DNA of 30,818 bases from an uncultured delta proteobacterium (GCA_963840855.1 CAWJBB010000063.1:1-30818), one strand, 5' to 3'; shown: positions 12,628 through 30,818, counted from the first letter of the stretch. Notes: generated from the sequence alone by a model not told the origin. Numbers and translations are program-made.

Positions 12628-13389
12628 TCACCCCGCCCGCATCTTCAGCAGCGTCGGAACATCTATTTTTTCCTGATACGGTCGGAGTTCTTTTTCTTTA
12701 CGCTGCACGCCGAGCATGGCCATGCGGTCGGCGAGTTCGTTGCCTTCGGTGCCGACGTGGGCGGCGACGTGGGTGAGCTTCAGTTCTTCTTTAATGCGTC
12801 GGTAGATCGCGTAACATTCCTGGATAATTTCCAGGTTCTTGATCTCGCCGCCAGGTTTTTTCCAGCCTTTCTTTTCCCAGTTCGGTGCCCAACTGCGAAT
12901 GCAGTTGATGGAGTACGCCGAGTCGCTGCACACCTCGACGGTGTTGCCGGCCTTGAGTTCTGCTTCGGCCATGCGCAATGCGTGATAGAGCGCGTTCAGT
13001 TCGGCGCTGTTGTTGGTCCCCCTGGGGTTGTACAGGCCAAACCACAATTGCGCGAGTTTGCCGTCTCGATACACCACGATGCCGGAGCCGGCATTGCCGG
13101 GGTTGGGTTCACAGGCGCCATCGCAATAAATACTGACATCGAACTTGCGAGAGGGATGGGTGAAGTTGCTTTCGCTTCTGCCCGGCATGCCGGTTTTATG
13201 CCTGCTGGCCGTTTTAGGCGGAATGCTTGCGTAGCCGCCGCGACCAAATGCTTGCTCTGCTTCCGCACGGGTCGCGAAGGACTTGAAGCGCGCTCCGGCA
13301 TACTTGTCCACGGCCCGCTGGGTGATCGCCCAATCCGTGAATATACCGGTCTGCCGTCCTGACCAAACCACGTAAAATTTTTGCGCCAT
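12628..13389 (-). CDS. rnhA: Ribonuclease HI with N-terminal caulimovirus-viroplasmin-like hybrid-binding domain
   Basis: KFYVVWSGRQTGIFTDW..GARFKSFATRAEAEQAF (hybrid-binding domain); IYCDGACEPNPG, TNNSAEL, SDSAY and HVAAHVGTEGNELADRMA (complete DEDD set). Confidence 0.93.
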   Translation of the reverse strand: MAQKFYVVWSGRQTGIFTDWAITQRAVDKYAGARFKSFATRAEAEQAFGRGGYASIPPKTASRHKTGMPGRSESNFTHPSRKFDVSIYCDGACEPNPGNAGSGIVVYRDGKLAQLWFGLYNPRGTNNSAELNALYHALRMAEAELKAGNTVEVCSDSAYSINCIRSWAPNWEKKGWKKPGGEIKNLEIIQECYAIYRRIKEELKLTHVAAHVGTEGNELADRMAMLGVQRKEKELRPYQEKIDVPTLLKMRAG

Positions 13390-16916: not shown

Positions 16917-17267
16917 CGCATCTCTCCTCTCAAATTTCGGCTAACCGCCATTGCTAAATCGAACGGCGCTGCCAATTCCCTATATGAATAAATTCAATGC
17001 TCTTGCAAACCTACTAATTCTGCCGGCGGTGCACAAGAATAATTTTTCAGGCAATGCTGCATTCTGGCCAGGATTGAGGGTACAATAATCGAAGCTCGCA
17101 TTGTAACATTAGAGTTCGTGCTTTTACTTTTAGAGCCAGTTTGTGGAGACGTTGCTGACTAGATGGGCAAACTCCATCTTCCCATCGCGAGGCTCCCGAA
17201 GCATGAACGGATTTGTTTCACACACTCTCAGTGCGACAAACTGGACCATCAAAGGAGACAACTAAGC

Positions 17268-18416
17268 ATGGCGCAAGACTTTGTTGGCACCAAGCGCTGG
17301 GTACGCCCGGCCACTCCTTATGAGATTTACATGGAGGAGCAAAGTCTCCCTATCCATCGTGGCACGGTGGGGTTCTGCGACATCCGCGACCTGACTTTGG
17401 GATCTTGGAAGCGCATGGGCGCTCAAGGCGCGTTCATCGAGCTTAACGGCTGCGGCGGGCTCCAGGGGATGTACGTTATCGAGGTGCCCGGTGCAGGTGC
17501 GATCACTCCGGAAAAGCACATGTATGAGGAGATCTTCTACGTGCTCGAGGGGCGCGGCACCACAGAGATCTGGAGCAGCGACGATGCTAACAAGAAGCAG
17601 ACTTTCGAGTGGCAGCCGGGCAGCCTCTTCTCTCCACCGCTGAATACCTGGCACCGCATCGTCAACGCCACCTCCAGCCCTGCCTTACTACTTGGCGTGA
17701 CCAACGCGCCGCCGATCTTCCACATCTACCGGAGTCAGGACGCGCTGTTCAACAACCCGTACCATTTCAAGGATCGGTACGACGGGAGTGCGGATTATTT
17801 CAAAGCGCATACCGAGCTCGGAAAAGATCCGCGCCACGGCCGTGCGCGCAACTACGGTAATATTATCCCGGACGCTGACCGCGTGGAGCTGCCGCTAGAT
17901 GGCCAGCGCGGCGTGGGGCACCGAACTTTCTTTTGGAATCTGTCCGGTAATAGTTATCAGGGGTTCATTGCGCAATACGCGCCCGGCCGCTACTCCCGAT
18001 GTCACGCCCATGAAGCCGGCCCGGTGCTGCTGTGTCTAGGCGGCAAGGGCTACACCATCACGTGGCCTGGCGAGGCGGGAACGACGCCGTGGGCTGACGG
18101 CAAGGGCGAATTGGTGCAGCGACAGGACTACAAGCCTGGCGGCATCGTGAGCGCTGCCCCGGGCGATGCCGGCTGGTTCCACGGCCACTTTGGCGCATCT
18201 AAGGAACCTTTGCGTGTGCTGGCCTTCCTGGGCGGCTATCCTAGGCGGGTCAAGGGTGTCCCTGGAGCAGATTGGTGGGGTTTGAATCTCGACATCAAAC
18301 AGGGCGGCCACACCATCGAGTACCGTGACGAAGACCCGCATATCCGCAAGCTGTTTCAAGAGCAATTGGCAAAAGAAGGCGCAGCCTTCAATATGCCTGA
18401 CGAAGTATATCTGTAA
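17268..18416 (+). CDS. Bicupin protein (gentisate-1,2-dioxygenase-like fold, uncharacterised)
   Basis: Two cupin motifs: EKHMYEEIFYVLEGRG..PLNTWH and CHAHEAGPV..WFHGHF. Start moved from 17163 to ATG17268 because AAAGGAG precedes it. Confidence 0.8.
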   Translation: MAQDFVGTKRWVRPATPYEIYMEEQSLPIHRGTVGFCDIRDLTLGSWKRMGAQGAFIELNGCGGLQGMYVIEVPGAGAITPEKHMYEEIFYVLEGRGTTEIWSSDDANKKQTFEWQPGSLFSPPLNTWHRIVNATSSPALLLGVTNAPPIFHIYRSQDALFNNPYHFKDRYDGSADYFKAHTELGKDPRHGRARNYGNIIPDADRVELPLDGQRGVGHRTFFWNLSGNSYQGFIAQYAPGRYSRCHAHEAGPVLLCLGGKGYTITWPGEAGTTPWADGKGELVQRQDYKPGGIVSAAPGDAGWFHGHFGASKEPLRVLAFLGGYPRRVKGVPGADWWGLNLDIKQGGHTIEYRDEDPHIRKLFQEQLAKEGAAFNMPDEVYL

Positions 18417-18478
18417 GCTGTTCGAGCACGCTATTCTAGGAGCGGTGTAACAGTTGATTCGCGCCTAAGTTCGAAGCA

Positions 18479-18537
18479 CCCTTCGACAGCTCAGGGTGAA
18501 CGGTCAAGGCACAGGCCGGTCGTGGTGAGGCTCTCAC
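18479..18537. repeat. Degenerate REP-like palindromic element (CCCTTCGACAGGCTCAGGGnGAACGG type)
   Basis: CCCTTCGACAGCTCAGGGTGAACGG...CCGGTCGTGGTGAG lies between the convergent cupin and frc genes; the two arms are partly complementary. Confidence 0.55.
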
Positions 18538-18576
18538 CGCCGCCTCTGTCCCTCAATTCGCGAAGCATTTTGTCGT

Positions 18577-19818
18577 TCAAATCGCCCCTTCTTTGTGCGC
18601 CTCTTCGATTTCATCGTCGTCGAATCCCAGAATAGATCTCAATATCTCGCCGGTGTGCTCCCCTAAGTACGGTGAACGTTTCACGTCCGTCGGCGAATCC
18701 GAGAGCTTGATCGGGTTGCCCACCGTCAAAAATTTTCCCCGCTTCGAATGATCCACTTCGACAATCGTACCAGTCGCGCGCAATGCCTGTTCCTCGGCTA
18801 GCTCGCGCATATCGAGGACTGGGCCGCAGGGAACATCGTGATCGTTGAGCTTGCGCATCACTTCGAGTTTATTGAGGGTCATGGTCCATTGCTCAATAAT
18901 TTCAAAACACTTGTCGAGCTTGGGCAAACGCGCTTCCGGCGTCGCCCACTCCGGATCGGTGATTAGTTCGGGCCGCCCGCACAGTTTCATCAACGGCTCC
19001 CAGCCGACGGGCTGGATGATGACGTAGATGTAATCGTTGGGGCCACCGCCTTTGGTGCGAACCGCCCAGCCGGGCTGACCTCCGCCGGACGAATTGCCGG
19101 CGCGCGGCACGGCATCGCCAAAGACGCCGTTAGGATATTGGGGATATTCTTCAAGGGGACCAGCGGCGAGCCGCTGCTGATCCCGCAACTTGACGCGGCA
19201 GAGATTGAGTACGGCATCTTGCATGGCGCAGGTCACGCGCTGCCCTCTGCCGGTTTTCTCCCGCTGCAAGAGCGCCGCGAGAATTCCTGCGGCCAGATGG
19301 ATGCCCGTGCCGGAATCACCGATCTGCGCGCCGCTCACGATCGGCGGGCCGTCCTCGAAGCCTGTGGTACTGGCCGATCCGCCGGTAAACTGGGCGACGT
19401 TTTCGTAAACTTTACAGTCTTCGTAAGGACCCGGGCCAAAGCCCTTTACCGAAGCGTAAATGATGCGCGGATTAAGTCCTTGAATCGCTTCCCAAGTAAA
19501 GCCCTGGCGGTCGAGGGCACCGGGGGAAAAGTTTTCGACTAGAACGTCGCAACACCTGATCAGCTCGCGAAATATTTCTTTGCCTTTCTTCGTCTTGGTA
19601 TTGAGTGTAATGCTCCGCTTATTGCAGTTGAGCATCGTAAAATAGAGGCTGTCGGCATTGGGCTTGTCGCGCAGCTGGCCGCGCGTGATATCGCCGCGGC
19701 CTGGCAGCTCGACTTTGATCACGTCCGCGCCGAACCATGCCAGAAGCTGCGTGCAGGTCGGTCCCGATTGCACATGCGTCATGTCGAGGATTCGAATTCC
19801 GTCAAGCGCTTTTCCCAT
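18577..19818 (-). CDS. frc: Formyl-CoA:oxalate CoA-transferase (family III CoA-transferase)
   Basis: [61 protein letters not shown], catalytic Asp in [23 protein letters not shown] and glycine loop GGGQPGW. Confidence 0.96.
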
Positions 19819-19887
19819 AGTTTTCCTATCGAAATTGTTCGTCGCTCACACAAATTTTCCGCTCACCCCTCACACGAGAAGGAGTTA

Positions 19888-20014
19888 CTCGCGCCAAGGC
19901 GCGCCAAGTGACTGGCCTCCGCCCGTCATCCCGAGCGGATGCGAGGGATCTAAGAAAGATTTCTCCCTTCGGTCGAAATGACGCTCTCTGCGGCCTTGGC
20001 CTCTTTGCGCGAGA
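19888..20014. repeat. Nested palindromic intergenic repeat (outer CTCGCGCnAAG/CTTTGCGCGAG arms enclosing a GTCAT...ATGAC REP-like unit)
   Basis: Outer arms 19888-19908 and 19995-20014. Inner 19925-19982 reads GTCATCCCGAGCGGATGCGAGGGATCT..AGATTTCTCCCTTCGGTCGAAATGAC. Confidence 0.7.
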
Positions 20015-20053
20015 TATTCCTAGTTCCGGTTCCGGATTCGCCGCTGCTCAACT

Positions 20054-21769
20054 TCATTTGTACATCGTCTGCGCCCTGGTGCCCGGCGCGTACTCATTGA
20101 TATCGACCCAGATGTTGACGATGGCGCACTGGCCGCCGGCCACTCGTTCGCGGGCTTTTTCTAATGCCGGGCGAATCTGACTTGGCTCGCGCACTGCGAT
20201 GCCCCAGCCGCCGAAGCATTCGGCAAATTTTTCGAAATCGACATCTCCTAGCTTGTTGCCGACCGAGCCGCGCTCCGGCCCGTATTTGCCGATCTGGCCG
20301 CAGCGGATCTGGTTCATCGCCGAGTTGTTGCCGATGACAGCGATATAGGGCAGTCCGAAGCGTTGGGCGGTTTCCATATCCCATGCGGTCATGCCGAATG
20401 AACCGTCGCCATAGTAACAGAGCACTTCTTTTTTCGGGTGAACGAACTTGGCCGCCATGGCGAACGCAGTGCCGACGCCTAAGGTGCCCAGCGGTCCGGG
20501 GTCCATCCAGTTGCCGGCTTTGCGCGGCTCCACTGCCGTTGCCGTGATCGTTACGACGTCGCCGCCGTCGCCGATGTACACCGTATTGTCCGTCAAAAAT
20601 TCGTTGATCTCATATGCAACCCGGTAAGGATTGACCGGCACAGATTCCGATTTGAACGACGGCAGGAGTTTTTCATATGCCTTGACCTCGGCGGCGCGGA
20701 GATCCTTCATCCATTCAGCCCGCTTGTCGTTGCCCTTCGATGCTCGGCCCGTCGCGGCCTGCGCCACAGCTTTCAGAATCGCGCCGCAGTCGCCCACGAG
20801 GCCCAGCGAGATATCGCGGTTTTTGCCGACGTTGCGGTAGTCGAGATCGATCTGCACGACGATGGCGTCGGATCGCAGCCGGCGCCCATAGCCCAAGCGA
20901 AAATCGAACGGGCAACCGACGATCAAAATCACGTCGGCTTTGTCGAACGCGAGCCCGCGCGTGCGGTTGAAACCATGGGGATCGCCGGGCGCAAAGATGC
21001 CGCGGCCCGAACCATTCATATAGCCCGGAATATTTAACCCACGGCAGAATTCCACCGCCGCGTCATGCCCACGGCTCGTCCAGACCTGGGTGCCGAACAA
21101 CGCGCAGGGCCGCTCGGCCTTGACCAGAATATCCGCGAGCCGTTCAACGTCCGCCGGGTCGCCAACGGACTTCGTCGAAGCGCGATAAGCACCGGGCTTT
21201 GGAACACGCGCCCGCTCCAGCGGAACTTTGGCATCGAGCACGTCACGGGGGATCTCGAGATAGACCGGACCCGGCGCACCGTTGACCGCCTCGCGAAACG
21301 CCATGGAGACCATATCGGCGACCCGCTCGGTGTGCGGTACGCTGGCGGCGAATTTCGTAATCGGCGCCATGATGTCCACGTGCGGCAAGTCTTGCAGCGA
21401 TCCCATCTTGTGCTGGGACAGCGCGCCCTGCCCACCAATCATCAACAGCGGGCTTTCGGCGCGAAACGCATTGGCTATGCCGGTCATCGCATTGGTCGTG
21501 CCCGGTCCCGCCGTCGTCACCACGCAACCGATCTTGCCGCTTTGCCGCGAGTAGCCGTCGGCGGCGTGAGCCGCGACTTGTTCATGGCGCACATCGATAA
21601 TCTTTATGCCTTCATCGAGACAGCCGTCATAAATGTCGATGATATGGCCGCCGCAGAGCGTCCAGATGACCTCGACGCCTTCGTTCTTGAGCGCCTTGGC
21701 CACCAGATGGCCGCCGGAAATCACTGGGCCGGAAGGCTCTTTGTTATCGCTTTTCGTTGGCGTTGCCAT
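20054..21769 (-). CDS. ThDP-dependent enzyme, acetolactate synthase/2-hydroxyacyl-CoA lyase superfamily; probable non-canonical oxalyl-CoA decarboxylase
   Basis: DVRHEQVAAHAADGY, TTAGPG, GPLGTLGVG and ThDP motif GDGSFG..GNNS. Co-oriented directly upstream of frc. N-terminal TLCGGHI differs from canonical Oxc GxxGIP. Confidence 0.85.
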   Translation of the reverse strand: MATPTKSDNKEPSGPVISGGHLVAKALKNEGVEVIWTLCGGHIIDIYDGCLDEGIKIIDVRHEQVAAHAADGYSRQSGKIGCVVTTAGPGTTNAMTGIANAFRAESPLLMIGGQGALSQHKMGSLQDLPHVDIMAPITKFAASVPHTERVADMVSMAFREAVNGAPGPVYLEIPRDVLDAKVPLERARVPKPGAYRASTKSVGDPADVERLADILVKAERPCALFGTQVWTSRGHDAAVEFCRGLNIPGYMNGSGRGIFAPGDPHGFNRTRGLAFDKADVILIVGCPFDFRLGYGRRLRSDAIVVQIDLDYRNVGKNRDISLGLVGDCGAILKAVAQAATGRASKGNDKRAEWMKDLRAAEVKAYEKLLPSFKSESVPVNPYRVAYEINEFLTDNTVYIGDGGDVVTITATAVEPRKAGNWMDPGPLGTLGVGTAFAMAAKFVHPKKEVLCYYGDGSFGMTAWDMETAQRFGLPYIAVIGNNSAMNQIRCGQIGKYGPERGSVGNKLGDVDFEKFAECFGGWGIAVREPSQIRPALEKARERVAGGQCAIVNIWVDINEYAPGTRAQTMYK

Positions 21770-22149
21770 GCTTTCCTCCCTATGACACCGGTTACAATCC
21801 CACGGGCCTGGGCAACATCTTTTTGCGCGAGGTCACGGATCGACTCAGCGTTTCTTAACCTTGTAGAAAGCTGAAACCCAGATCGAGCGGCTTAGCCGTC
21901 AGACGCAAGTCAAAAATCGTCTTATCTGTCGGCCAAGGCAGAGGCCGTTTATGGCCTCGGCAGGTTTTTCCCAACATACAAAATAGTTGGCCCGTGCTCA
22001 AGACTTTGGTCTTCGCGGCGCTGTGAATTGACGTTCTCAACAGCGCATAGCAATATCTCCTGGGCTTTTGTGTAACCAACGCCCTTTAGGAGAGCGCCCA
22101 ACGCGCCTTGACTAATTTTTCCGCTATGATATGGGGCATGTTCCTAGGA

Positions 22150-22166
22150 GCCGAATAGTATTCGGC
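22150..22166. promoter_or_regulatory. Perfect 8-bp inverted repeat (operator or RNA hairpin) in the tctC leader
   Basis: GCCGAATA-G-TATTCGGC, downstream of a TATGAT -10-like hexamer at 22125-22130. Confidence 0.45.
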
Positions 22167-22196
22167 GGAGATGTGACACCCCCGATGCCAACAACC

Positions 22197-22236
22197 AAGC
22201 CCAACTGATTGTAAAATCAGTCGGGCTTTTTGTTTT
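22197..22236 (+). terminator. Intrinsic terminator-like hairpin within the 5' leader of the tct operon
   Basis: AAGCCCAACTGATT-GTAA-AATCAGTCGGGCTT (14 bp with one A-C mismatch, GNRA loop) followed by TTTGTTTT. Ends 37 nt before tctC ATG. Confidence 0.7.
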
Positions 22237-22273
22237 ACGAACATGAAAACTATCAGTACCAAAGGAGGATCAT

Positions 22274-23273
22274 ATGCAGATAGTCGCACGCCCCTATCAT
22301 TGGTTGCTTTGCGCACTTTTCCTAGTTGGGCTCTTGCCTGTCAAGGTTGAGGGTCAAACCTGGGAGCCCACCAAGCCCATCGAGTTCGTTATACCTGCCG
22401 GCACCGGCGGCGGCGCCGACCAGATGGCGCGTTTGATCGCCGGTATTACGGAAAAAAATAAGCTCTCTCCGCGCCCCTTGATCCCGGTCAATAAATCGGG
22501 TGGTGCCGGCGCTGAAGGATTTCTTCATGTCAAAGAGAAAAAAGGCGACCCGCATGTCATCATCATAACGCTTTCCAATCTCTTCACGACCCCTCTGCAC
22601 ACCGGGGTGCCGTTCAACTGGAAAGATTTGACGCCGCTGGCGCGCTTGGCGCTCGACCAATTTATCCTGTGGGTCAACGCCGAGACGCCATACAAGACCG
22701 CCAAAGATTATATCGATGCGGTGAAAGCTCAGTCGGGCGGAGCGTCGCGCATGAAGATGGGCGGCACGGGCTCGGCCCAGGAAGATCAAATCATCACCAT
22801 CCAGCTGGAGCAAAACCTGGGGGTCAAATTCACCTATGTTCCGTTTAAAGGCGGGGGTGAAGTTTGCGTGAACCTGGTCGGCAAGCATGTCGATTCGACG
22901 GTCAATAATCCCGCCGAATGCGTCAGTCACTGGAGAGCCGACCGGGTCCGTCCGCTGGCGGTGTTCGATACGCGCTAGAATTCCTGAAGGAGACTGGAAA
23001 GCCATCCCAACCGTCAAAGAAGCCCTGGGAACCGATATTCACTATCTTATGCTCAGGGGAATCTTCGGCGCGCCCGGGATAGCCAAAGAAGCGGTTGCCT
23101 GGCACACAGATTTTTTGAAGAAGGTTTACGAGACGCCGGATTTCAAGAAATATCTTTCGGAGGGAGCCTTGAAACCGGCATTCTCCACCGGACCCGAATA
23201 TGTCAAATGGGTTGACGAGAATGAAAAACTCCATAGAGAGCTGATGGCGAAGGAAGGCTTGCTCAAAAAGTAG
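22274..23273 (+). CDS. tctC: Tripartite tricarboxylate transporter substrate-binding protein (TctC/Bug), frameshifted near 22972
   Basis: Signal peptide, PTKPIEFVIPAGTGGGADQMAR, NKSGGAGAEG and YVPFKGGGEV. Continues in the +1 frame as ARIPEGDWKAIPTVKE..MLRGIFGAPG..KEGLLKK*. RBS AAAGGAGG. Confidence 0.88.
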
Positions 23274-23274
23274 C

Positions 23275-23736
23275 ATGCGCGCGGCGGACCAGATCACGGC
23301 ATCGATACTCATCGCGCTGGGCGCGCTGGTGCTTCTCGATGCCGTGCGCCTTGGCATCGGCTGGGGCACGGACGGGCCCAACAGCGGTTTTTTTCCATTT
23401 TGGCTCGCGCTCATCATGGTCGCGTCCTGCGCCGTGATCATCGTCCAGGAATCCAGCAGAAAGGCGCGCCGGAATTTCGTCACGCGGGAAAGGCTGGCGC
23501 CAGTCCACAAAGTCTTGTGGCCCGCCGTCACGGCGGTGGCGGCGATGCACTTTATCGGCCTGTACGTCGCTGCGGCGCTGTACCTGGCTTTCTACATGCG
23601 CTGGGTTGGACGCCATCGGTGGAGCACCGTTGTGATCCTCGCCCTGGGAATCCCAGTCGTCACTTTTTTGATTTTTGAGACATGGTTTCTCGTGCCGATG
23701 CCCAAAGGCCCTCTGGAAGCATGGTTGGGTTACTGA
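23275..23736 (+). CDS. tctB: Tripartite tricarboxylate transporter small membrane subunit TctB
   Basis: Four to five hydrophobic helices, GPNSGFFPFW and C-terminal FETWFLVPMPKGP; lies between tctC and tctA. Confidence 0.9.
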   Translation: MRAADQITASILIALGALVLLDAVRLGIGWGTDGPNSGFFPFWLALIMVASCAVIIVQESSRKARRNFVTRERLAPVHKVLWPAVTAVAAMHFIGLYVAAALYLAFYMRWVGRHRWSTVVILALGIPVVTFLIFETWFLVPMPKGPLEAWLGY

Positions 23737-23739
23737 TCC

Positions 23740-25260
23740 ATGGGCGTCGAAAACATCCTGCTGGGATTTCAAGTCGCGATCACCCCATTCAATCTCGCCG
23801 TCGCCGTCATCGGCATTCTGCTGGGGACGATCATCGGTGTCCTGCCGGGGCTTGGCGGCGCTAACGGAGTGGCGATCCTTCTTCCCGTTACGTTTACGAT
23901 GCCGCCGACTTCGGCGATCATTCTCTTGACCTCGATCTACTGGGGCGCTCTCTTCGGCGGCGCCATTACCTCGGTGCTCTTCAACATACCGGGCGAGCCT
24001 TGGTCGGTGGCAACAACTTTCGACGGCTACCCGATGGCGCGGGATGGTCGAGGCGGGCAGGCGCTTACCGCCGCCTTTACGTCTTCCTTCGTGGGCGCCT
24101 TGTTTTCCATCGTGCTCATCACGTTTTTTGCGCCGGTGCTGGCCGAGATCGCTCTTAAGTTCGGGCCGCCGGAATTTTTTGCCATTCAGCTCCTCACCTT
24201 TTCCAGTTTCATCGGCCTCGGCGGCGGCAATCCACTGAAGTCTCTCGTCGCGATTCTCTTGGGATTCATCTTGGCCACGGTCGGGCTGGACATCGTCACT
24301 GGACAATTGCGCCTGACCTTCGGCTTTACCGGCATGATGAAAGGATTTGATTTCATCATCGCCGTCATCGGACTTTTCGGCATCGGCGAGATGCTGCTGA
24401 GCGTCGAGGAAGGACTGAGTTTCAGGGGAACGAAGACCGGCATGAACCTGCGGGTGGTATTCGACACCTGGAAAGTTCTGCCCCGCTTTTGGCGCACCTT
24501 CGTGCGCAGCGCGTTCATTGGATTCTGGATGGGGTTCAAGCCGGGCGGGGCGACGCCGGCTTCATTTATGAGCTATGCCTTTGCCAAGCGTTTTTCGAAA
24601 AACAGCGACAAATTTGGCAAAGGTGAGATTGAAGGGGTAGTCGCTCCGGAGACGGCGGCACATGCCGCGGGCGTCGCCGCGATCCTCCCCATGATTACGC
24701 TGGGTATTCCCGGCTCGCCCACCGCGGCGGTGATGCTCGGCGGCCTCATCGTTTGGGGATTGCAGCCGGGCCCCCTGCTGTTCAAGGAAAAGCCCGATTT
24801 TGTTTGGGGACTGATCGCTAGCATGTACACTGGAAATATCATCGGTGTGCTCATGGTCTTGGCCTTCGTCCCCTTCTTCGCCGCCATTCTGCGCATCCCT
24901 TTCGCGATCCTTACGCCCTTGATCATCGTAGTATGCGCCATCGGATCGTACGCCGTGCATAACAGCATGCTCGACGTATGGTACATGCTGATCTTCGGCG
25001 TGATCGGTTATGTCTTCAAGAAGCTGGATTATCCCCTGGCGCCGCTCGTGTTGGCGTTGGTGCTGGGCGACATGGCCGAGAGCGCGCTGCGTCAAAGCTT
25101 GATTATATCGCAGGGATCGTTGGCGATATTTTTCAACCGGCCGATTTCCGGGGTGATTACGATTCTGGCGCTCTTCTTCTTCGCCATGCCAGTGGTGACC
25201 CCGTGGTGGCGCAAACTGCGCGGGTTGCCCAGCCATACACCGGCGGCGTTACGCGAATAG
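23740..25260 (+). CDS. tctA: Tripartite tricarboxylate transporter large membrane subunit TctA
   Basis: GTIIGVLPGLG, FNIPGEP..TTFDGYPMA, EGVVAPETA, LGIPGSPTAAVMLG, LQPGPLLF and PLVLALVLG. Confidence 0.95.
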   Translation: MGVENILLGFQVAITPFNLAVAVIGILLGTIIGVLPGLGGANGVAILLPVTFTMPPTSAIILLTSIYWGALFGGAITSVLFNIPGEPWSVATTFDGYPMARDGRGGQALTAAFTSSFVGALFSIVLITFFAPVLAEIALKFGPPEFFAIQLLTFSSFIGLGGGNPLKSLVAILLGFILATVGLDIVTGQLRLTFGFTGMMKGFDFIIAVIGLFGIGEMLLSVEEGLSFRGTKTGMNLRVVFDTWKVLPRFWRTFVRSAFIGFWMGFKPGGATPASFMSYAFAKRFSKNSDKFGKGEIEGVVAPETAAHAAGVAAILPMITLGIPGSPTAAVMLGGLIVWGLQPGPLLFKEKPDFVWGLIASMYTGNIIGVLMVLAFVPFFAAILRIPFAILTPLIIVVCAIGSYAVHNSMLDVWYMLIFGVIGYVFKKLDYPLAPLVLALVLGDMAESALRQSLIISQGSLAIFFNRPISGVITILALFFFAMPVVTPWWRKLRGLPSHTPAALRE

Positions 25261-25312
25261 CTGGCTCGTGTGATGTCCAGCAAGCCGGCGGGGCCAATTT
25301 CTCTAGCAAGAC

Positions 25313-25369
25313 TTGACAGCTAATGAGTAATTCGGTAGGTACTGGTCAGACCATTAGACAGCTAGACCA
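25313..25369 (+). promoter_or_regulatory. Putative sigma70 promoter with FadR-subfamily operator upstream of the GntR-oxidoreductase operon
   Basis: Perfect TTGACA at 25313-25318, weak -10 near 25336, palindrome TGGTCAGACCA at 25343-25353 (TGGT-N3-ACCA consensus) and a degenerate second copy ..CTAGACCA at about 25360-25369. Confidence 0.7.
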
Positions 25370-25371
25370 AA

Positions 25372-26112
25372 ATGCTGAAAGCGATTAAAAAGACCCGCAT
25401 TTACGAAGAAGTGGTCAGCCAGGTCCATCAGCTTATCAGGGAAGGAAGACTGAAAGCTGGCGATCAGCTGCCTTCCGAGCGAGAACTCTCGGAGACTTTT
25501 AAGGTGAGCCGGACGTCCGTGCGTGAAGCTCTGCGAACGCTGGAAACCAAGGGGCTGGTTATCAGCCGAACGGGGATGGGCAATTTCGTCGCCGATTTAC
25601 CCATCGAATCGTTGGTCGCACCGTTGGCGAAACTTCTTCTTGAAGAAAAGACCGCCCTAGCTGACGTTTTTGAGCTGCGTAAGCTGATTGAACCCCATAT
25701 CGCGGCGTTGGCGGCCGAGCGGGCAACAAACATAGATATTGCGCGGATGAAAAGGATTCTGGAAAAACAGAGCGTAGCGGTCAGTCGCGGGGAGACCGGA
25801 GTGGAAGCCGATGCGCAGCTCCATTTTGCCATTGGTCAGGCAACCCAAAATCAGGCGCTGGAGAAGCTGGTTTCCGGCTTGATGGAAATATTGAGCCACA
25901 GTCGCGAAGAATCCCTCCAAACACCCGATCGAAGGAAGGCTTCCATAGAGTCCCACCGAGTAATTCTTTCGGCAATTGAACGCCACGATAAGACAGCGGC
26001 GCAAGAGGCGATGTTCCACCACATCGAGCAGGTCGAAGAAAATGTGCTTTCATCGCGGAAAACAGCGGGCGATTATAACGAGACCCGATTAGAAGAGAGG
26101 AGTATTTCATGA
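25372..26112 (+). CDS. GntR family transcriptional regulator, FadR subfamily (PdhR/LldR/GlcC-like)
   Basis: wHTH LKAGDQLPSERELSETFKVSRTSVREALRTLE..GMGNFV. FCD domain with ADAQLHFAI..ATQN, SHRVILSAI and MFHHI. ATGA overlap with the next gene. Confidence 0.94.
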   Translation: MLKAIKKTRIYEEVVSQVHQLIREGRLKAGDQLPSERELSETFKVSRTSVREALRTLETKGLVISRTGMGNFVADLPIESLVAPLAKLLLEEKTALADVFELRKLIEPHIAALAAERATNIDIARMKRILEKQSVAVSRGETGVEADAQLHFAIGQATQNQALEKLVSGLMEILSHSREESLQTPDRRKASIESHRVILSAIERHDKTAAQEAMFHHIEQVEENVLSSRKTAGDYNETRLEERSIS

Positions 26113-27310
26113 TCAAGCGCGTAGAGGTCAACTATCGAGGCATTTTTCAGAAGAACCTGGGCAAAAAGATCGGCAGCGACATCGTCATGATCGCCAGCCG
26201 CATGGGTCAGAAGGCTTTTTCCAACGGGCGGTACAGCGATTCGCCGGAGAGAAACGGCATCCCGTGCAAATATTTCGCCTTTGTTTCCCCGGACCTCGCC
26301 GAGGAGGAATTGGAAGCGGAATGCGGCGCCAAGCTGGAGATCGACGAGGCCAACATCTCCGTCGTGCTCGACGACACGATGTGCAAGGGCGTCGAGCCCT
26401 GGGGCTGGCACGGCATCCGTCCCATCAACGAAAGAGTAGTGAAAGACGGCTGCCTGTTCGTTTTTTCCAGAAAGAGTCCGGCCGAGCTTCTCAAGTTCAT
26501 CGGAAAAAAACCTTATAACTACCGTCTGGCGATCCTTGACGGAGACGCAAGTCTCGCCGGACTTTGGGTGAACAAGGACGACTATGACCCACGAGCGGAC
26601 GCTGGGCGGCATCGCCGCCATCGAACCCGAGTATGATCAGCATCGAGGCGGTCGAGGCCTATCTGCTGGAAAAGACCAAGGAGAAACGACGGGCGGAGGC
26701 GGCGCGCGCCGCGTATGAGTCGCTTAGACAGGAGTCCAAGCCCCCGAGGGTAAGAACGGTCACGCCCGAAGACGGCATCGAATGGACCCACGAGATACCC
26801 GTGCTGCCCAAATGGTTCGAGATGCAAGAGGGCGCCGTGGTTCCGGCCGTAAAGCGCGGCTTCGAGATGGGCCCCAGAGGACAAACGAGAAACCCGGGCT
26901 TCAAGCGCGGCACCACCAAGACGCAGCGGCCTGCCGTGCGATTCGATCTTTGTACCAAGTGTACTCTCTGCTGGGCCGAGTGTCCGGACGAGTGTTTCGA
27001 TCCGACCACGGACGGACTCTACGACATCGACTATCAGTATTGCGTGGGTTGCGGGAAATGCGCCCAAGTCTGTCCGGTTAAAGAGTGCATCGTCATGGTC
27101 GACGAGCTCCGATTCCAGGACGACGCGAGCCCGTGGGAACACTGGAAGAAGGACTCCAACGACTACATTCAGTGGGTCGAGGACAAAAAAGGCAAAGACC
27201 GGGTTTCTTACCCCTTCGTCACCGGCAAGGGCATCACTGTCACTCAGGGAGAAGTGATGCCCGAGGGAAAGATCGTGCCGGTTAGAAAAACCGAGGAGGT
27301 CGAAGTATGA
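26109..27310 (+). CDS. 2-oxoacid:ferredoxin oxidoreductase fused gamma+ferredoxin subunit (oxalate oxidoreductase delta-like; PorC/PorD-like), interrupted by two +1 frameshifts (about 26583, about 26632)
   Basis: N-terminal gamma-domain-like YRGIFQ..YSDSPERNGIP; bridging frame reads MTHERTLGGIAAIEPE; two 4Fe-4S motifs CTKCTLCWAECP and CVGCGKCAQVCP. Confidence 0.82.
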
Positions 27311-28548
27311 GTGTCGCAGTTGCAACAGCCAAATCAGATCAATCAGGCGTCTACGAGCGGGAAGACCTTTTGAACGGCTGCCAGGCCGTCGCGCAGGGCG
27401 TGCGTCTCGCCGACGTGGACGTGATCGCCGCCTATCCGATCCGTCCCTATACCGAGGTGATGGACGCCTTCTCGAAGCTGATCGCCGACGGGCAATTCGA
27501 CGCCGAGTATATCATCGCCGACAGCGAACACTCGCAGTTTGAGATCGTCAAGCACGCCAGTTCCGTGAACGCCCGCGCCTTCGGCGGATCGAGCGGCACG
27601 GGTTGGATGTACGGCATGGAAGCGCTGGTGGTTACCGCCACCGACCGTCTCCCGCCTCTTTTCGTGGTGGGCAACCGCGCTCTGGACGATCCGGGCGCCT
27701 TCGGCGTCGAGCACAACGACGCAATGTCCGTCCGGGACATGGGCTGGCTTCTCTGCTGGGTCACGACGCCGCAGGAAGCGCTGGAGCACGTGCTGATCGG
27801 CTACCGCATCGCCGAGGACAAGAAAGTCAGGATGCCGATGGGATTGGCGATGGACGGCGCCTTTCTCACCCACTCGCAGCACATTGTGAAGATCCCGTCC
27901 GTAGAAGCCGCCAAGAGATTTCTCCCGCAGTATGACCTTGCCGAGCGCCGCCTCCATCCCGACAACCCCATCTCCGTCGCGCCGCAAGCCAATGAGGATT
28001 GGGTCATGGAGATCCGCCGGCAGAACTGGGAAGCCGCCAAGCGGGCGCGCGTAATCATCAAAGATGCCTATAAAGAATTCAATGACATCTTCGGCGAGCG
28101 CTACGCCGCGCCTTATTACTTCGACGAATTCATGACCGACGACGCGGAAGTGGTCCTGATCGGCATCGGCACGGTGGCGGCTCCGGCGCGCACCGCGGTC
28201 AGACGCTTGCGCGAGAAGGGTCAGAAGGTCGGCTACGTGAACCTGCGCTGGTTCCGCCCCTTCCCGACGGTGGAGCTGCGCGAGTGCTTGAGCCGCTTTA
28301 AAGCGGTCGGCGTCGTCGACAGGGACTTCGCCCACGGCTCGCCCGATAATTGCGGCATCTTGATGCACGAGATCCGCTCGTGTCTCTATCCGGCGAAGAA
28401 CCGGCCGGCAATCGTCAATTTCATTGGCGGCCTGGGCGGGCGCGATCTGTCCATCGCCGATGCCCAGAAGATGTACGAAACCACTCAACAGGCGGCCAAG
28501 AATGATTCCATGGATGAATTCATAACCTGGATCGGCCTAAGAGAGTAA
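27307..28548 (+). CDS. 2-oxoacid:ferredoxin oxidoreductase alpha subunit (PorA-like), oxalate-oxidoreductase type
   Basis: GCQAVAQGVRLADVDVIAAYPIRPYT (YPIRP rather than YPITP), SEHS, NRALDDPGAFGVEHND, LRWFRPFP and GGLGGRD. Confidence 0.9.
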   Translation: MSVAVATAKSDQSGVYEREDLLNGCQAVAQGVRLADVDVIAAYPIRPYTEVMDAFSKLIADGQFDAEYIIADSEHSQFEIVKHASSVNARAFGGSSGTGWMYGMEALVVTATDRLPPLFVVGNRALDDPGAFGVEHNDAMSVRDMGWLLCWVTTPQEALEHVLIGYRIAEDKKVRMPMGLAMDGAFLTHSQHIVKIPSVEAAKRFLPQYDLAERRLHPDNPISVAPQANEDWVMEIRRQNWEAAKRARVIIKDAYKEFNDIFGERYAAPYYFDEFMTDDAEVVLIGIGTVAAPARTAVRRLREKGQKVGYVNLRWFRPFPTVELRECLSRFKAVGVVDRDFAHGSPDNCGILMHEIRSCLYPAKNRPAIVNFIGGLGGRDLSIADAQKMYETTQQAAKNDSMDEFITWIGLRE

Positions 28549-28563
28549 ACAGGAGGAACAATC

Positions 28564-29559
28564 ATGTCGACTGTACCGACCATCGATTACGAAAGAATCA
28601 AAGGGGTTCACAAAATCCCGCTGGAAGAACTCTATACCTCCGGCCACCGCACCTGCCAGGGCTGCGAGTCGGCAACGACGATGCGCGGCTTTATCAAGGC
28701 GGCGGGTTCGCGCACCGTTGTGACGGGATCCACAGGCTGTATGTATGTGGCCAACACCTCTTACATGACCACGCCCTGGATCGTGCCGTGGATGCACACC
28801 CAGCTCGGCGCCGGCGGCTCCTCAGCCGTGGGCATGGCCGCGGGCCTGCGGGCGCTCAAGCGCAAAGGCAAGATCAAAGACGAGAAGATCAACGTCATCA
28901 ATTTCTCCGGCGATCTCGGCGCCGGCGACATGGGCATCGGTGGCATTTCCGCCGCGCTGCAGAGCGATTACGACTTGCTGATTATCATGTACGACAACGA
29001 ATCGGCCGCCAATACCGATATCCAAGCAACAGGCTCGACGACTTTCGGCGCGCAGACGACGTTCACGCCGCCGGGGACGAAGCATTCCATCATGCAGCGG
29101 CGCTGGAAAAAGAACGTTGCCGGCATGCTGGCGGTCGGCCATCCGACCTGCCGCTATGTCGCCACCGCCTGCGCGACTTTTCCGCCGACGGATTATTTGA
29201 ACAAGGTGCGCAAGGCGCTCGAGATCGGCGGTCCGACTTTCATCCATACCTACGATCCCTGTCCGAAGGGATGGGACTATCACCCCCGTTTTTCCAACGA
29301 GCTAGGCGAGTTGGGAATCAAGTGCGGCCTCTACCCGCTCTACGAGATCGTGGACGGCAACATCATTTACACCTGGGACGCGCGCAAGACGGGCAAGGGA
29401 AGAATCCCGGTAAAGGAGTTTCTCACCAAACAGGGCCGCTTCGACCATCTCAAAGAAGAGCACTTCACCTACATTCAGAAGATGGTGGACGAGATGTGGG
29501 ACGAGTGGCAGATGCCGGGCGTCGCGCCGATCAAGGGTACCTTGAGGGCCAGAATTTGA
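28564..29559 (+). CDS. 2-oxoacid:ferredoxin oxidoreductase beta subunit (PorB-like, ThDP and 4Fe-4S binding), oxalate-oxidoreductase type
   Basis: GHRTCQGC, TGCMYVANTSY, ThDP motif GDLG..YDNESAANT, TTFTPPG and PCPKGW. RBS AGGAGG. Confidence 0.9.
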   Translation: MSTVPTIDYERIKGVHKIPLEELYTSGHRTCQGCESATTMRGFIKAAGSRTVVTGSTGCMYVANTSYMTTPWIVPWMHTQLGAGGSSAVGMAAGLRALKRKGKIKDEKINVINFSGDLGAGDMGIGGISAALQSDYDLLIIMYDNESAANTDIQATGSTTFGAQTTFTPPGTKHSIMQRRWKKNVAGMLAVGHPTCRYVATACATFPPTDYLNKVRKALEIGGPTFIHTYDPCPKGWDYHPRFSNELGELGIKCGLYPLYEIVDGNIIYTWDARKTGKGRIPVKEFLTKQGRFDHLKEEHFTYIQKMVDEMWDEWQMPGVAPIKGTLRARI

Positions 29560-29589
29560 TGCTGGCAAGCTGACGATCAGGATAGCAAC

Positions 29590-29622
29590 AAAAAAGGCCT
29601 CAACGAGTTGGGGCCTTTTTTT
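29590..29622 (+). terminator. Rho-independent terminator (bidirectional form) closing the oxidoreductase operon
   Basis: AAAAAA-GGCCTCAA-CGAG-TTGGGGCC-TTTTTTT, 30 nt after the beta-subunit stop. Confidence 0.85.
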
Positions 29623-29726
29623 ATGGCGCTGCGTGAGCTTTCGTAGTATGAAAACAATCGTCCAGAATTTCTCGAGGATAACGATTTGACATTGCGTCTG
29701 ATGCATTAGACGTTCGTGGAAACAGT

Positions 29727-29774
29727 CGGAATGCCGAATTCGTCGTTCCCGCGGAAGCGGGAATCCAGGCATTC
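29727..29774. repeat. REP-like palindrome of the GTCATTCCCGCG-N-GCGGGAATCCAG type
   Basis: GTCGTTCCCGCGGAAGCGGGAATCCAG at 29742-29768, preceded by a partial counter-arm CGGAATGCCG. Confidence 0.6.
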
Positions 29775-29862
29775 TTAATTTTCTTGATTGATGATAGTAT
29801 CTGTTCTTGTTCGTACTCGTAAGCTTACGGTCATTTCGAATTCGGCAAATTGAGGAGTTTGT

Positions 29863-30818
29863 ATGAATTCACATTGGTCACGTCGTGAGTTTTTGAAATC
29901 CACCACTGCTGCCTTAGTGTTCGGCGCCGCGGAACAAGCCTTGGGCGCCGCTTCAACCACTCTGCAAAAACGCCGCCTGGGAAAGACCGGCGAGATGGTG
30001 TCGTGCATCGGCTTCGGCGCTGGCAGCCGATACTGCTCCATCCCGGACGAGGACGCGGCACAAGCGCTCCTCGAGCGCGCGTTTGATCGCGGCGTTAACT
30101 ACTTCGACACCGTCGGCCTCTTACACGCGGCGGCCGCTGGAGCGATTGAGCGAAAAACGCCTCGGGGAATTTTCCAAAAAGCGCCGCAAGGAAATCTTCC
30201 TGGCAACCAAGATCGATCCCAGAGACCGGGACGGCGCGCTTCGCTCGGTTGAAACGAGTCTCAAATTCCTGCAAACGGACTATATAGATTTGATTCAAAT
30301 CCACAGTCTGAGCAACCTCGACGACCTTGCGCGCATCGGCAGCCCGGACGGCGTTCTCGCCGCCATCCAACAATTGAAACAGCAAAAAGTCGTCCGCTTC
30401 ATCGGCATCACCGGCCATAACGACGGCGCGGCTATGGCCGAGGCGCTGCGCCGCCACGACTTCGATACCGTGTTAATGGCGCTCAACGCCGCCCAATCCG
30501 CCAATCCCGTCGCGCAGCGCAAGATGGAGCCGATCCCCGCCTTCGAGCAGTCTGCCTTGCCGGTGGCGCTACAGAAAAATCTCGGTGTCCTTTCCATGAA
30601 GGTCATGGGCCAGGGCATGATCGTCGGCAGCGGCCCCGGCCGCGCGTCTTATTCGGAGCTTTTACAGTTCAATCTCAGCCAGCCCGTCGCCTCTGTGGTC
30701 ATTGGCTGCGAGCAAATGGCGCGCCTGGAAGAGAACGTGCAAGCTGCGCTCAACTTCACCCCGATCAGCGAAAACGGCAAGCAGCAGCTTCAAGAAAAAG
30801 TCGCCCCTTCCCGCTCCG
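29863..30818 (+). CDS. Aldo/keto reductase with twin-arginine (Tat-like) leader; +1 frameshift about 30113; runs off window end
   Basis: SRREFLK leader, KRRLGKTG..VSCIGFG and GVNYFDT. Shifted frame continues ASY..SEKRLG..IFLATK..SLKFLQTDYIDLIQIH..VRFIGITGH..SMKVMGQG, giving the D-Y-K-H tetrad. Confidence 0.88.

Follow-up and report, generated by a model that had tools for sequence, protein, structure and literature searches.

A candidate oxalate-catabolism island of an uncultured soil bacterium, with an frc gene pair beside an oxalate oxidoreductase-like operon

In soil, oxalate ranks among the major products of plants and fungi. The closest described systems to the locus presented here are the pathway of formyl-CoA:oxalate CoA-transferase (Frc) and oxalyl-CoA decarboxylase (Oxc), as found in Oxalobacter formigenes and in Escherichia coli (yfdW-yfdU), and the oxalate oxidoreductase (OOR; EC 1.2.7.10; structures 5c4i, 5exd and 5exe; models NF045790-NF045792) of the acetogen Moorella thermoacetica. 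Soil oxalate turnover has been surveyed by the marker genes frc, oxc, oxdC and oxlT (PMC10192776, PMC13409138), and one large survey gives want of information as its reason for omitting OOR (PMC8062136). Here, we describe a locus on a 30,818-nucleotide stretch of DNA (GCA_963840855.1, CAWJBB010000063.1:1-30818; hereafter the window), which is an entire contig (C63) of the metagenome-assembled genome (MAG) of an uncultured soil bacterium (G000; 7.1 Mb, 93 contigs, 94% complete, 8% contamination). The locus includes a leftward pair, a thiamine diphosphate (ThDP) enzyme gene followed by frc, and a rightward operon with the genes of a tripartite tricarboxylate transporter (TTT; tctCBA), of a GntR-type regulator and of an OOR-like ferredoxin oxidoreductase (Table 1). 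On balance, we judge it probable that the locus is an oxalate-catabolism island featuring TTT uptake, control by the FCD-type regulator, a Frc/ThDP cycle and OOR-like oxidation. What the locus adds is the presence of both arms together, each of them a variation on a described route. An earlier computational reading of the window (the original prediction) had proposed two independent oxalate-degradation routes with dedicated uptake and regulation; Pfam and NCBIfam models recovered every gene that it had named, each in its predicted place, and its view that the combination is undescribed agrees with the literature searched, in whose titles and abstracts neither OOR with frc at one locus nor OOR in Binatia is described.

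The leftward arm resembles the Frc/Oxc pathway in that a true Frc is joined by a three-domain ThDP enzyme of the Oxc/2-hydroxyacyl-CoA lyase (HACL)/acetolactate-synthase fold, and formate dehydrogenase and OFA-type or other carboxylate transporter genes also lie nearby in relatives of the window. It differs from E. coli in gene order, which is frc-oxc there and ThDP gene then frc in the island, and in the ADP-forming acyl-CoA synthetase gene that follows in many relatives. The Frc scores 683.9 bits against TIGR03253 (cut-off 504.2) and 704.3 bits against NF003809 (cut-off 442), E. coli Frc is 60% identical to it over the full length, and Q17, Q48, the catalytic Asp (D169) and the GGGQ glycine loop are all retained in the alignment (key residues of Frc and Oxc as listed in PMC10192776). 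By this homology the leftward gene is a genuine frc, the sole component of the mechanism proposed below whose identity has strong homology, and no other frc in G000 exceeds the cut-off. The same genome contains about 30 ThDP-enzyme matches and 18 matches to family-III CoA-transferases.

The original prediction had cast the ThDP enzyme and frc together as a Frc/Oxc route, of which the frc half holds and the canonical Oxc identity does not. The ThDP enzyme scores 223.5 bits against the Oxc model TIGR03254 (cut-off 739.4) and 236.9 bits against a second Oxc model (cut-off 557), it shares 25% identity with E. coli Oxc, and of the Oxc key residues E56, Y120, E121, Y483, S553 and R555, with numbering mapped via E. 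coli Oxc by manual count, E56 alone is retained. The GDYEEL of Oxc reads GSLQDL here, with Leu-Gln at the Tyr120-Glu121 position, and neither the Tyr of NNGGIYR nor the ESGH/R tail of Oxc is present. The enzyme was rejected as a canonical oxalyl-CoA decarboxylase because it fails the Oxc model and five of the six key residues are gone, and it also falls short of the model of the actinobacterial HACL family, reaching 327 bits of the required 600 (NF058623). It remains under the cut-off of every NCBIfam model, NF004516 included (433 bits, cut-off 587), and an orthologue from Streptomyces ipomoeae likewise stays under the HACL cut-off (368.5 of 600 bits). Its highest-scoring solved relatives are 2-hydroxyacyl-CoA lyases and synthases (8vza, 7pt1, 6xn8), with 8vza the best at 260 bits and E. 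coli Oxc at 181 bits; these enzymes also have Gln at the position of Oxc Glu121 and their formyl-CoA product would match, whereas the ThDP enzyme differs from them in having an oxalate-type Frc as its constant partner. The family has features of its own, namely an invariant GSLQDLPHVD motif and a YAPGTxxQTMYK tail. A search with the Oxc model revealed no canonical oxc elsewhere in G000 (best match 286.2).

The partnership with frc was assessed in 80 loci centred on the ThDP gene. In 75 of these loci frc comes immediately after the ThDP gene, on the same strand, and the remaining five are interrupted by contig ends within 650 bases. Loci with the pair span Binatia, Actinomycetota, Alpha- and Gammaproteobacteria and Gemmatimonadota, and include cultured Streptomyces, Kribbella, Lentzea and Thermoactinospora (65-68% identity). 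Streptomyces and Kribbella are genera with proven oxalotrophs according to a review (PMC13409138), which also describes a Kribbella oxalate pathway without oxc, in which frc is found in some species and does not contribute to oxalotrophy. A search of four genomes, two of Kribbella and two of Streptomyces, gave no canonical oxc, and the top match to the Oxc model there is the frc-linked ThDP gene. In all Kribbella loci fetched (L130, L135, L136, L141, L142, L148, L149 and L165) the ThDP gene lies immediately upstream of frc. Because of this constant partnership and the gene context, and despite the failed models, we read the ThDP enzyme as a functional stand-in for Oxc and thus as a candidate non-canonical oxalyl-CoA decarboxylase.

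The alpha and beta subunits of the rightward oxidoreductase have Moorella OOR as their best match among both models and structures. The alpha subunit scores 376.9 bits against NF045791 (cut-off 500) and the beta subunit 332.2 bits against NF045792 (cut-off 590), each the top of all models, with archaeal PorA and PorB at 327.3 and 263.9 bits. The gamma-delta gene is split in this assembly; its two halves cover positions 12-140 and 238-316 of NF045790 and score 25.9 and 63.8 bits (cut-off 230), with OOR delta as the top or near-top model, and the intact protein of the related locus L010 scores 89.5 bits against the same cut-off. Among solved structures, alpha matches 5c4i_A with 334.2 bits (best pyruvate:ferredoxin oxidoreductase, PFOR, 210.1) and beta matches 5c4i_C with 268 bits (PFOR beta subunit 180.3). 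The original prediction of a delta-alpha-beta oxidoreductase with a YPIRP motif is correct for the motif and for the delta, alpha and beta parts, and its subunit list is incomplete, as the gamma part (26109-26636) was overlooked. As in Moorella OOR, gamma and delta are fused in relatives of the window, where they form one gene (L010 8805-10004, 399 aa; L078 8739-9941, 400 aa); the fused subunit has 316 aa in Moorella and about 400 aa in the island lineage. Two CxxCxxCxxxCP motifs are present in gamma-delta, in keeping with the two ferredoxin-type cluster motifs of Moorella OOR, and the conserved beta Cys of that enzyme is also seen in the window alignment.

The substrate-site residues of Moorella OOR are partly shared. 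In that enzyme, Arg31 of YPIRP, which replaces the Thr of YPITP, provides the site for the charged substrate and, together with Asp116, takes part in a 'bait and switch' plug-loop mechanism (PMC5020499). In the window the YPIRP motif comprises alpha residues 43-47, and AAYPIRPYT and GNR align to SYPIRPYT and ADR(109) of Moorella, so that Arg31 and Arg109 are both retained. The plug loop ALDDPGAFGVEH aligns without gaps to Moorella TLDPPGDFGEEH (ALDDPGAF in the window, TLDPPGDF in Moorella), with Ala at the position of Asp116 and an Asp at 113. In a residue alignment of 86 full-length alpha cluster representatives, taken from the best 150, PIRP occurs in only seven, and the loops found with PIRP are DDPGAF (window, P0242, P0243, P0255), DDPGNF (P0247), the Moorella-like DPPGDF (P0250, P0301) and DQPGSF (P0376). 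Because the best model and structure for alpha and beta are those of OOR, yet the scores lie below the cut-offs and Asp116 is replaced, we place the window oxidoreductase, on sequence comparison, in a sister clade of Moorella OOR rather than as a strict member. The OOR-like hosts are soil lineages, unlike the acetogenic host of Moorella OOR, and the nearest relatives of the oxidoreductase genes come from soil and sediment MAGs labelled Candidatus Binatia, 'Deltaproteobacteria' or Syntrophobacteraceae. In total, 7,844 OOR-like clusters (90% identity) pass an E value of 1e-20, with pyruvate ferredoxin oxidoreductase as their source label.

The surroundings of the OOR-like operon were surveyed in 80 further loci (tblastn, E value of 1e-10 or better, at least half of the query aligned), a set separate from that of the ThDP gene, with the same contigs present in both surveys as L010/L090, L011/L104, L018/L102, L025/L097 and L045/L091. 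Neighbouring genes in this survey were also grouped by clustering and typed by family scans. Unlike in Moorella, the genes beside the operon encode a GntR regulator and a TTT system or OxlT; in this lineage frc joins them. A GntR/FCD homologue precedes the operon in 53 of the 80 loci, at least one TTT gene is present in 18, and frc and the ThDP gene are each found in 10. Both occur together within 10 kb of the operon in nine loci and in two arrangements, which are divergent in the window and L010, and with the frc/ThDP pair downstream of oorB in eight other loci. All OOR loci with frc or the ThDP gene are among the 38 in which OorA is at least 84% identical, apart from L069, which has frc alone; the joint loci are all kin, and the counts do not represent independent events. 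Seen from the other survey, 8 of the 80 ThDP loci have an OOR-like operon no more than 8 kb from the ThDP gene. Further, 81 genomes of the class were screened for the OOR-like alpha gene and the ThDP orthologue. The former is found in seven, among them four of the five other members of the window's family, and the latter (at least 68% identical) in five, and both are found only in G000 and G011, where they are adjacent in each.

These surveys indicate that the OOR and Frc/ThDP arms are independent modules, which are clustered when one genome holds both. Their linkage is beyond chance, since the adjacency survives two arrangements and the only sampled class genomes with two arms have them adjacent. 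The linkage that the original prediction had expected to be conserved does recur in close relatives, and with 9 of 80 OOR loci it is not general across genomes.

Oxalate as the substrate is supported by context, because true OxlT or TTT genes adjoin OOR-like operons in other phyla and formate dehydrogenase adjoins the island in kin. A true OxlT (TIGR04259, 571.7 bits, cut-off 335) follows oorB in L073, and its cluster is also found in L058 and L067. The genes tctCBA come directly after oorB in four loci of distant lineages (OorA below 84%), such as the Armatimonadota MAG L043, and the same TTT type lies beside either arm alone in other phyla. An NAD-type formate dehydrogenase flanks the ThDP-frc pair both in relatives and in other phyla; of the more distant loci, two from Alphaproteobacteria and two from Actinomycetota have it. 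The NuoEF-like gene that recurs at OOR loci (L011, L025, L044) is part of this dehydrogenase, and in G000 it is located just before the only FdhA gene above cut-off. Both NuoEF-like and FdhA genes adjoin the oxalate island in L011, L025, L092 and L095, and a formate-dehydrogenase-like molybdoenzyme is found near the OOR operon in L079, L081 and L086.

In the mechanism that we propose, oxalate would be taken up by TctCBA, and the GntR/FCD regulator would control the locus, with oxalate or a product as the signal. Frc, as its homology shows, would transfer CoA from formyl-CoA to oxalate, and the ThDP enzyme, judged by its context, may decarboxylate oxalyl-CoA back to formyl-CoA, so that the net reaction of this arm would be oxalate to formate and CO2. 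The formate would then be oxidised by the NAD-type formate dehydrogenase, which this genome encodes on contig C67, giving NADH. In the second arm, the OOR-like enzyme would oxidise oxalate to two CO2 and reduced ferredoxin, probably without CoA. Soil RNA libraries from two studies contain contigs that are 90-100% like the OOR and frc/ThDP genes, which hints only weakly at expression. The redox switch raised in the original prediction is unsupported, as nothing found here speaks for or against it. In the 94%-complete G000, the Pfam families searched gave no haem-copper oxidase subunit I, cytochrome bd or NiFe hydrogenase, and the queries used gave no OxlT above cut-off.

Several observations weigh against an oxalate-catabolism island. 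Both enzyme clades are known from sequence alone, every OOR-like subunit falls under the OOR cut-offs and the plug-loop Asp116 is an Ala. The ThDP enzyme fails the Oxc model, is without Tyr120-Glu121, Tyr483, Ser553 and Arg555, and has 2-hydroxyacyl-CoA lyases and synthases as its nearest solved relatives. The arms are mostly apart, with five of the seven OOR-positive class genomes being without the ThDP orthologue and 72 of the 80 ThDP loci without OOR. Additionally, oxalate transport by a TTT system is not described in the literature searched, as judged by titles, and three genes of the locus are frameshifted, with 17 kb upstream free of such signs, which makes local decay possible. Three other explanations of the locus were weighed. 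The leftward pair could form a 2-hydroxyacid alpha-cleavage cycle, in which the ThDP enzyme would be a 2-hydroxyacyl-CoA lyase yielding formyl-CoA and an aldehyde, the Frc-like protein would transfer CoA from formyl-CoA to a 2-hydroxyacid such as glycolate or lactate, and the oxidoreductase would use a 2-oxoacid like glyoxylate. The nearest solved structures fit such a cycle, as do the higher score of the HACL model than of the Oxc model (327 against 223.5 bits), the similarity of the Leu-Gln at Tyr120-Glu121 to the Phe-Gln of 8vza, and the OFA-type MFS neighbours of the ThDP-frc pair, which match the L-lactate transporter model too. However, the HACL model is failed as well, and the Frc passes the oxalate-specific equivalog cut-off and is 60% identical to its characterised counterpart in E. 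coli. The additional Arg in YPIRP suits a second carboxylate and a true OxlT adjoins the OOR-like operon elsewhere; moreover, genera of proven oxalotrophs have the ThDP-frc pair and no canonical oxc was found in the genomes searched. We therefore regard the hydroxyacid cycle as unlikely. A still less probable explanation is that the neighbourhood is coincidental and comprises two unrelated carboxylate modules with no shared substrate or control. The separation of the arms in most genomes and the close kinship of all joint loci are in its favour, yet the adjacency survives rearrangement, in other phyla each arm on its own is found with this TTT type, and formate dehydrogenase joins the island in relatives.

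The third explanation concerns the state of this copy. The frame of tctC shifts at about 22971-22974, two extra bases near 26582 and 26626 (about 45 nt apart) split gamma-delta by moving the frame from 3 to 1 to 2, and an aldo-keto reductase gene after the terminator (29854-30817), with a homologue near the island in 5 of 80 loci, shifts near 30113-30117 (about 30115). If these frameshifts were real, the locus would be decaying here, with uptake and oxidoreductase impaired, and would work only in relatives. Four single-base indels in about 8 kb fit decay, as does the Pfam coverage of the genes in the upstream 17 kb, which appears complete, and contigs of close strains in two public runs (X1, X6) are without one base at 22971. 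On the other side, there is no truncation in frc, the ThDP gene, tctA, tctB, gntR, alpha or beta, all of which are 92-97% like the genes of relatives, and L010 has the same gene order with all frames open, including an intact tctC of 328 aa. The fragmentation and contamination of the MAG also speak against decay, and strain variation across the region in many runs favours consensus errors. The run with the source reads was not found among public sequencing runs, the best of which holds 31% of words; the gamma-delta junction (bin 26354-26727) was barely covered in them. Assembly errors are the more likely origin of the frameshifts, and decay of the locus in this organism seems to us a real but doubtful prospect.

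The transporter belongs to the same three Pfam families as Salmonella-type TctCBA and has the same C-B-A order, and it differs in its proposed substrate, oxalate, and in the frameshifted tctC. The regulator is under the cut-off of all named NCBIfam regulators, and its gene overlaps the next by 4 bases. The dedicated uptake and regulation of the original prediction are present as TTT genes and a FadR-subfamily regulator, with the reservation that the tctC frame is disrupted in this assembly. In the divergent intergenic region, an alignment of eight tctC upstream regions revealed a CTTGACT box common to the window, L010, L016 and L029; no promoter passed the consensus scan of this region, and such scans gave fewer promoter-like sites than shuffles. 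The leader of tctC can form a hairpin of -20.5 kcal/mol (z -5.82; inverted repeat 22197-22210/22215-22228), which is retained in L010 with G-U-compatible changes and is absent from the six other aligned leaders. It is a possible attenuator. No RNA family matched above chance in 18000-30818 (Rfam), this hairpin included. The original prediction had closed the rightward operon with a terminator, and a stable hairpin (-20.2 kcal/mol, z -4.28, none of 200 shuffles as stable) followed by a U-run confirms it, a structure that a simple terminator scan overlooked.

Table 1. Coordinates of the features of the locus and of related genes; positions refer to the window unless another contig or locus is given.
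Feature	Position	Strand	Remarks
Two-cupin protein, 417 aa, no named family	17163-18416		convergent with frc
frc, formyl-CoA:oxalate CoA-transferase, 413 aa	18577..19818	-	NF003809, TIGR03253
ThDP enzyme, 571 aa, unnamed frc-linked family	20054..21769	-	three TPP_enzyme domains
Divergent intergenic region, 504 bp	21770..22273	.	CTTGACT box, TTGACT at 22108-22113
Hairpin and U-run in tctC leader, 46 nt before start codon	22197..22238	+	folding
tctC, periplasmic binding protein of TTT transporter	22274..23273	+	Pfam TctC 69.3 bits, first 234 aa
tctB, small membrane subunit	23275..23736	+	Pfam TctB 67.1 bits
tctA, large membrane subunit	23740..25260	+	Pfam TctA 509.2 bits
GntR regulator, FadR (FCD) subfamily	25372..26112	+	Pfam GntR 81 bits, FCD 97.6 bits
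OOR-like gamma-delta subunit (domain III and 2x[4Fe-4S] ferredoxin domain)	26109..27310	+	split into open reading frames 26109-26636 and 26633-27310
OOR-like alpha subunit, 413 aa, YPIRP	27307..28548	+	NF045791
OOR-like beta subunit, 331 aa, ThDP-binding	28564..29559	+	NF045792
Intrinsic terminator closing rightward operon	29590..29622	+	A-run before, U-run after hairpin
NuoEF-like and FdhA genes (NAD-type formate dehydrogenase)	G000 contig C67 27961-32566		
ADP-forming acyl-CoA synthetase	L045 6337-8463; L147 10971-13118; L136 11010-13154		

Further genes flank the two arms. The ADP-forming acyl-CoA synthetase gene (product about 710 aa) comes directly after frc in six Binatia-type loci and in both actinobacterial loci examined (Streptomyces and Kribbella), and its product may serve to prime the cycle with formyl- or oxalyl-CoA. 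In G000, which is 94% complete, the queries used gave no orthologue of it. Transporter genes of the OFA-family MFS or TTT type are found near the ThDP-frc pair, with TTT genes upstream of it in six proteobacterial loci, and an AMP-forming ligase is another recurrent neighbour of the OOR-like operon (L067, L072, L076). A homologue of the two-cupin protein occurs near the island in 3 of 80 OOR loci (L011, L016, L022). This protein was rejected as an oxalate decarboxylase, as it has no NCBIfam match and only a weak match to auxin-binding protein. The first 17 kb of the window are unrelated to the island and encode a solute-binding protein, a sulfatase, amidohydrolases, SelO, RNase H and a DUF72 protein. 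The RNase H gene (12628-13389) has an N-terminal Cauli_VI-type (RNase H1 N-terminal) domain.

The most far-reaching form of our proposal, in which the sister clade of OOR oxidises oxalate without CoA, the ThDP family is a working oxalyl-CoA decarboxylase, the transporter is the first oxalate-specific TTT, and one regulator and one transporter serve both routes, is tentative, and we consider it rather less likely to hold in full than to fail in some part. If it is true, OOR-like oxalate oxidation would be present in Binatia, Acidobacteriota, Chloroflexota, Armatimonadota and others, mislabelled as 'pyruvate ferredoxin oxidoreductase', and a ThDP family labelled 'acetolactate synthase' would decarboxylate oxalyl-CoA in many bacteria using different active-site residues. 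It would thereby account for oxalotrophy where oxc is reported to be lacking, with Kribbella and Streptomyces among the 'oxc-less' oxalotrophs concerned. Within the cell, oxalate would be split between low-potential ferredoxin, via OOR, and formate and NADH, via the Frc cycle and formate dehydrogenase. Each query matched over 7,800 clusters (90% identity), and marker-gene surveys would then overlook a large share of oxalate degraders.

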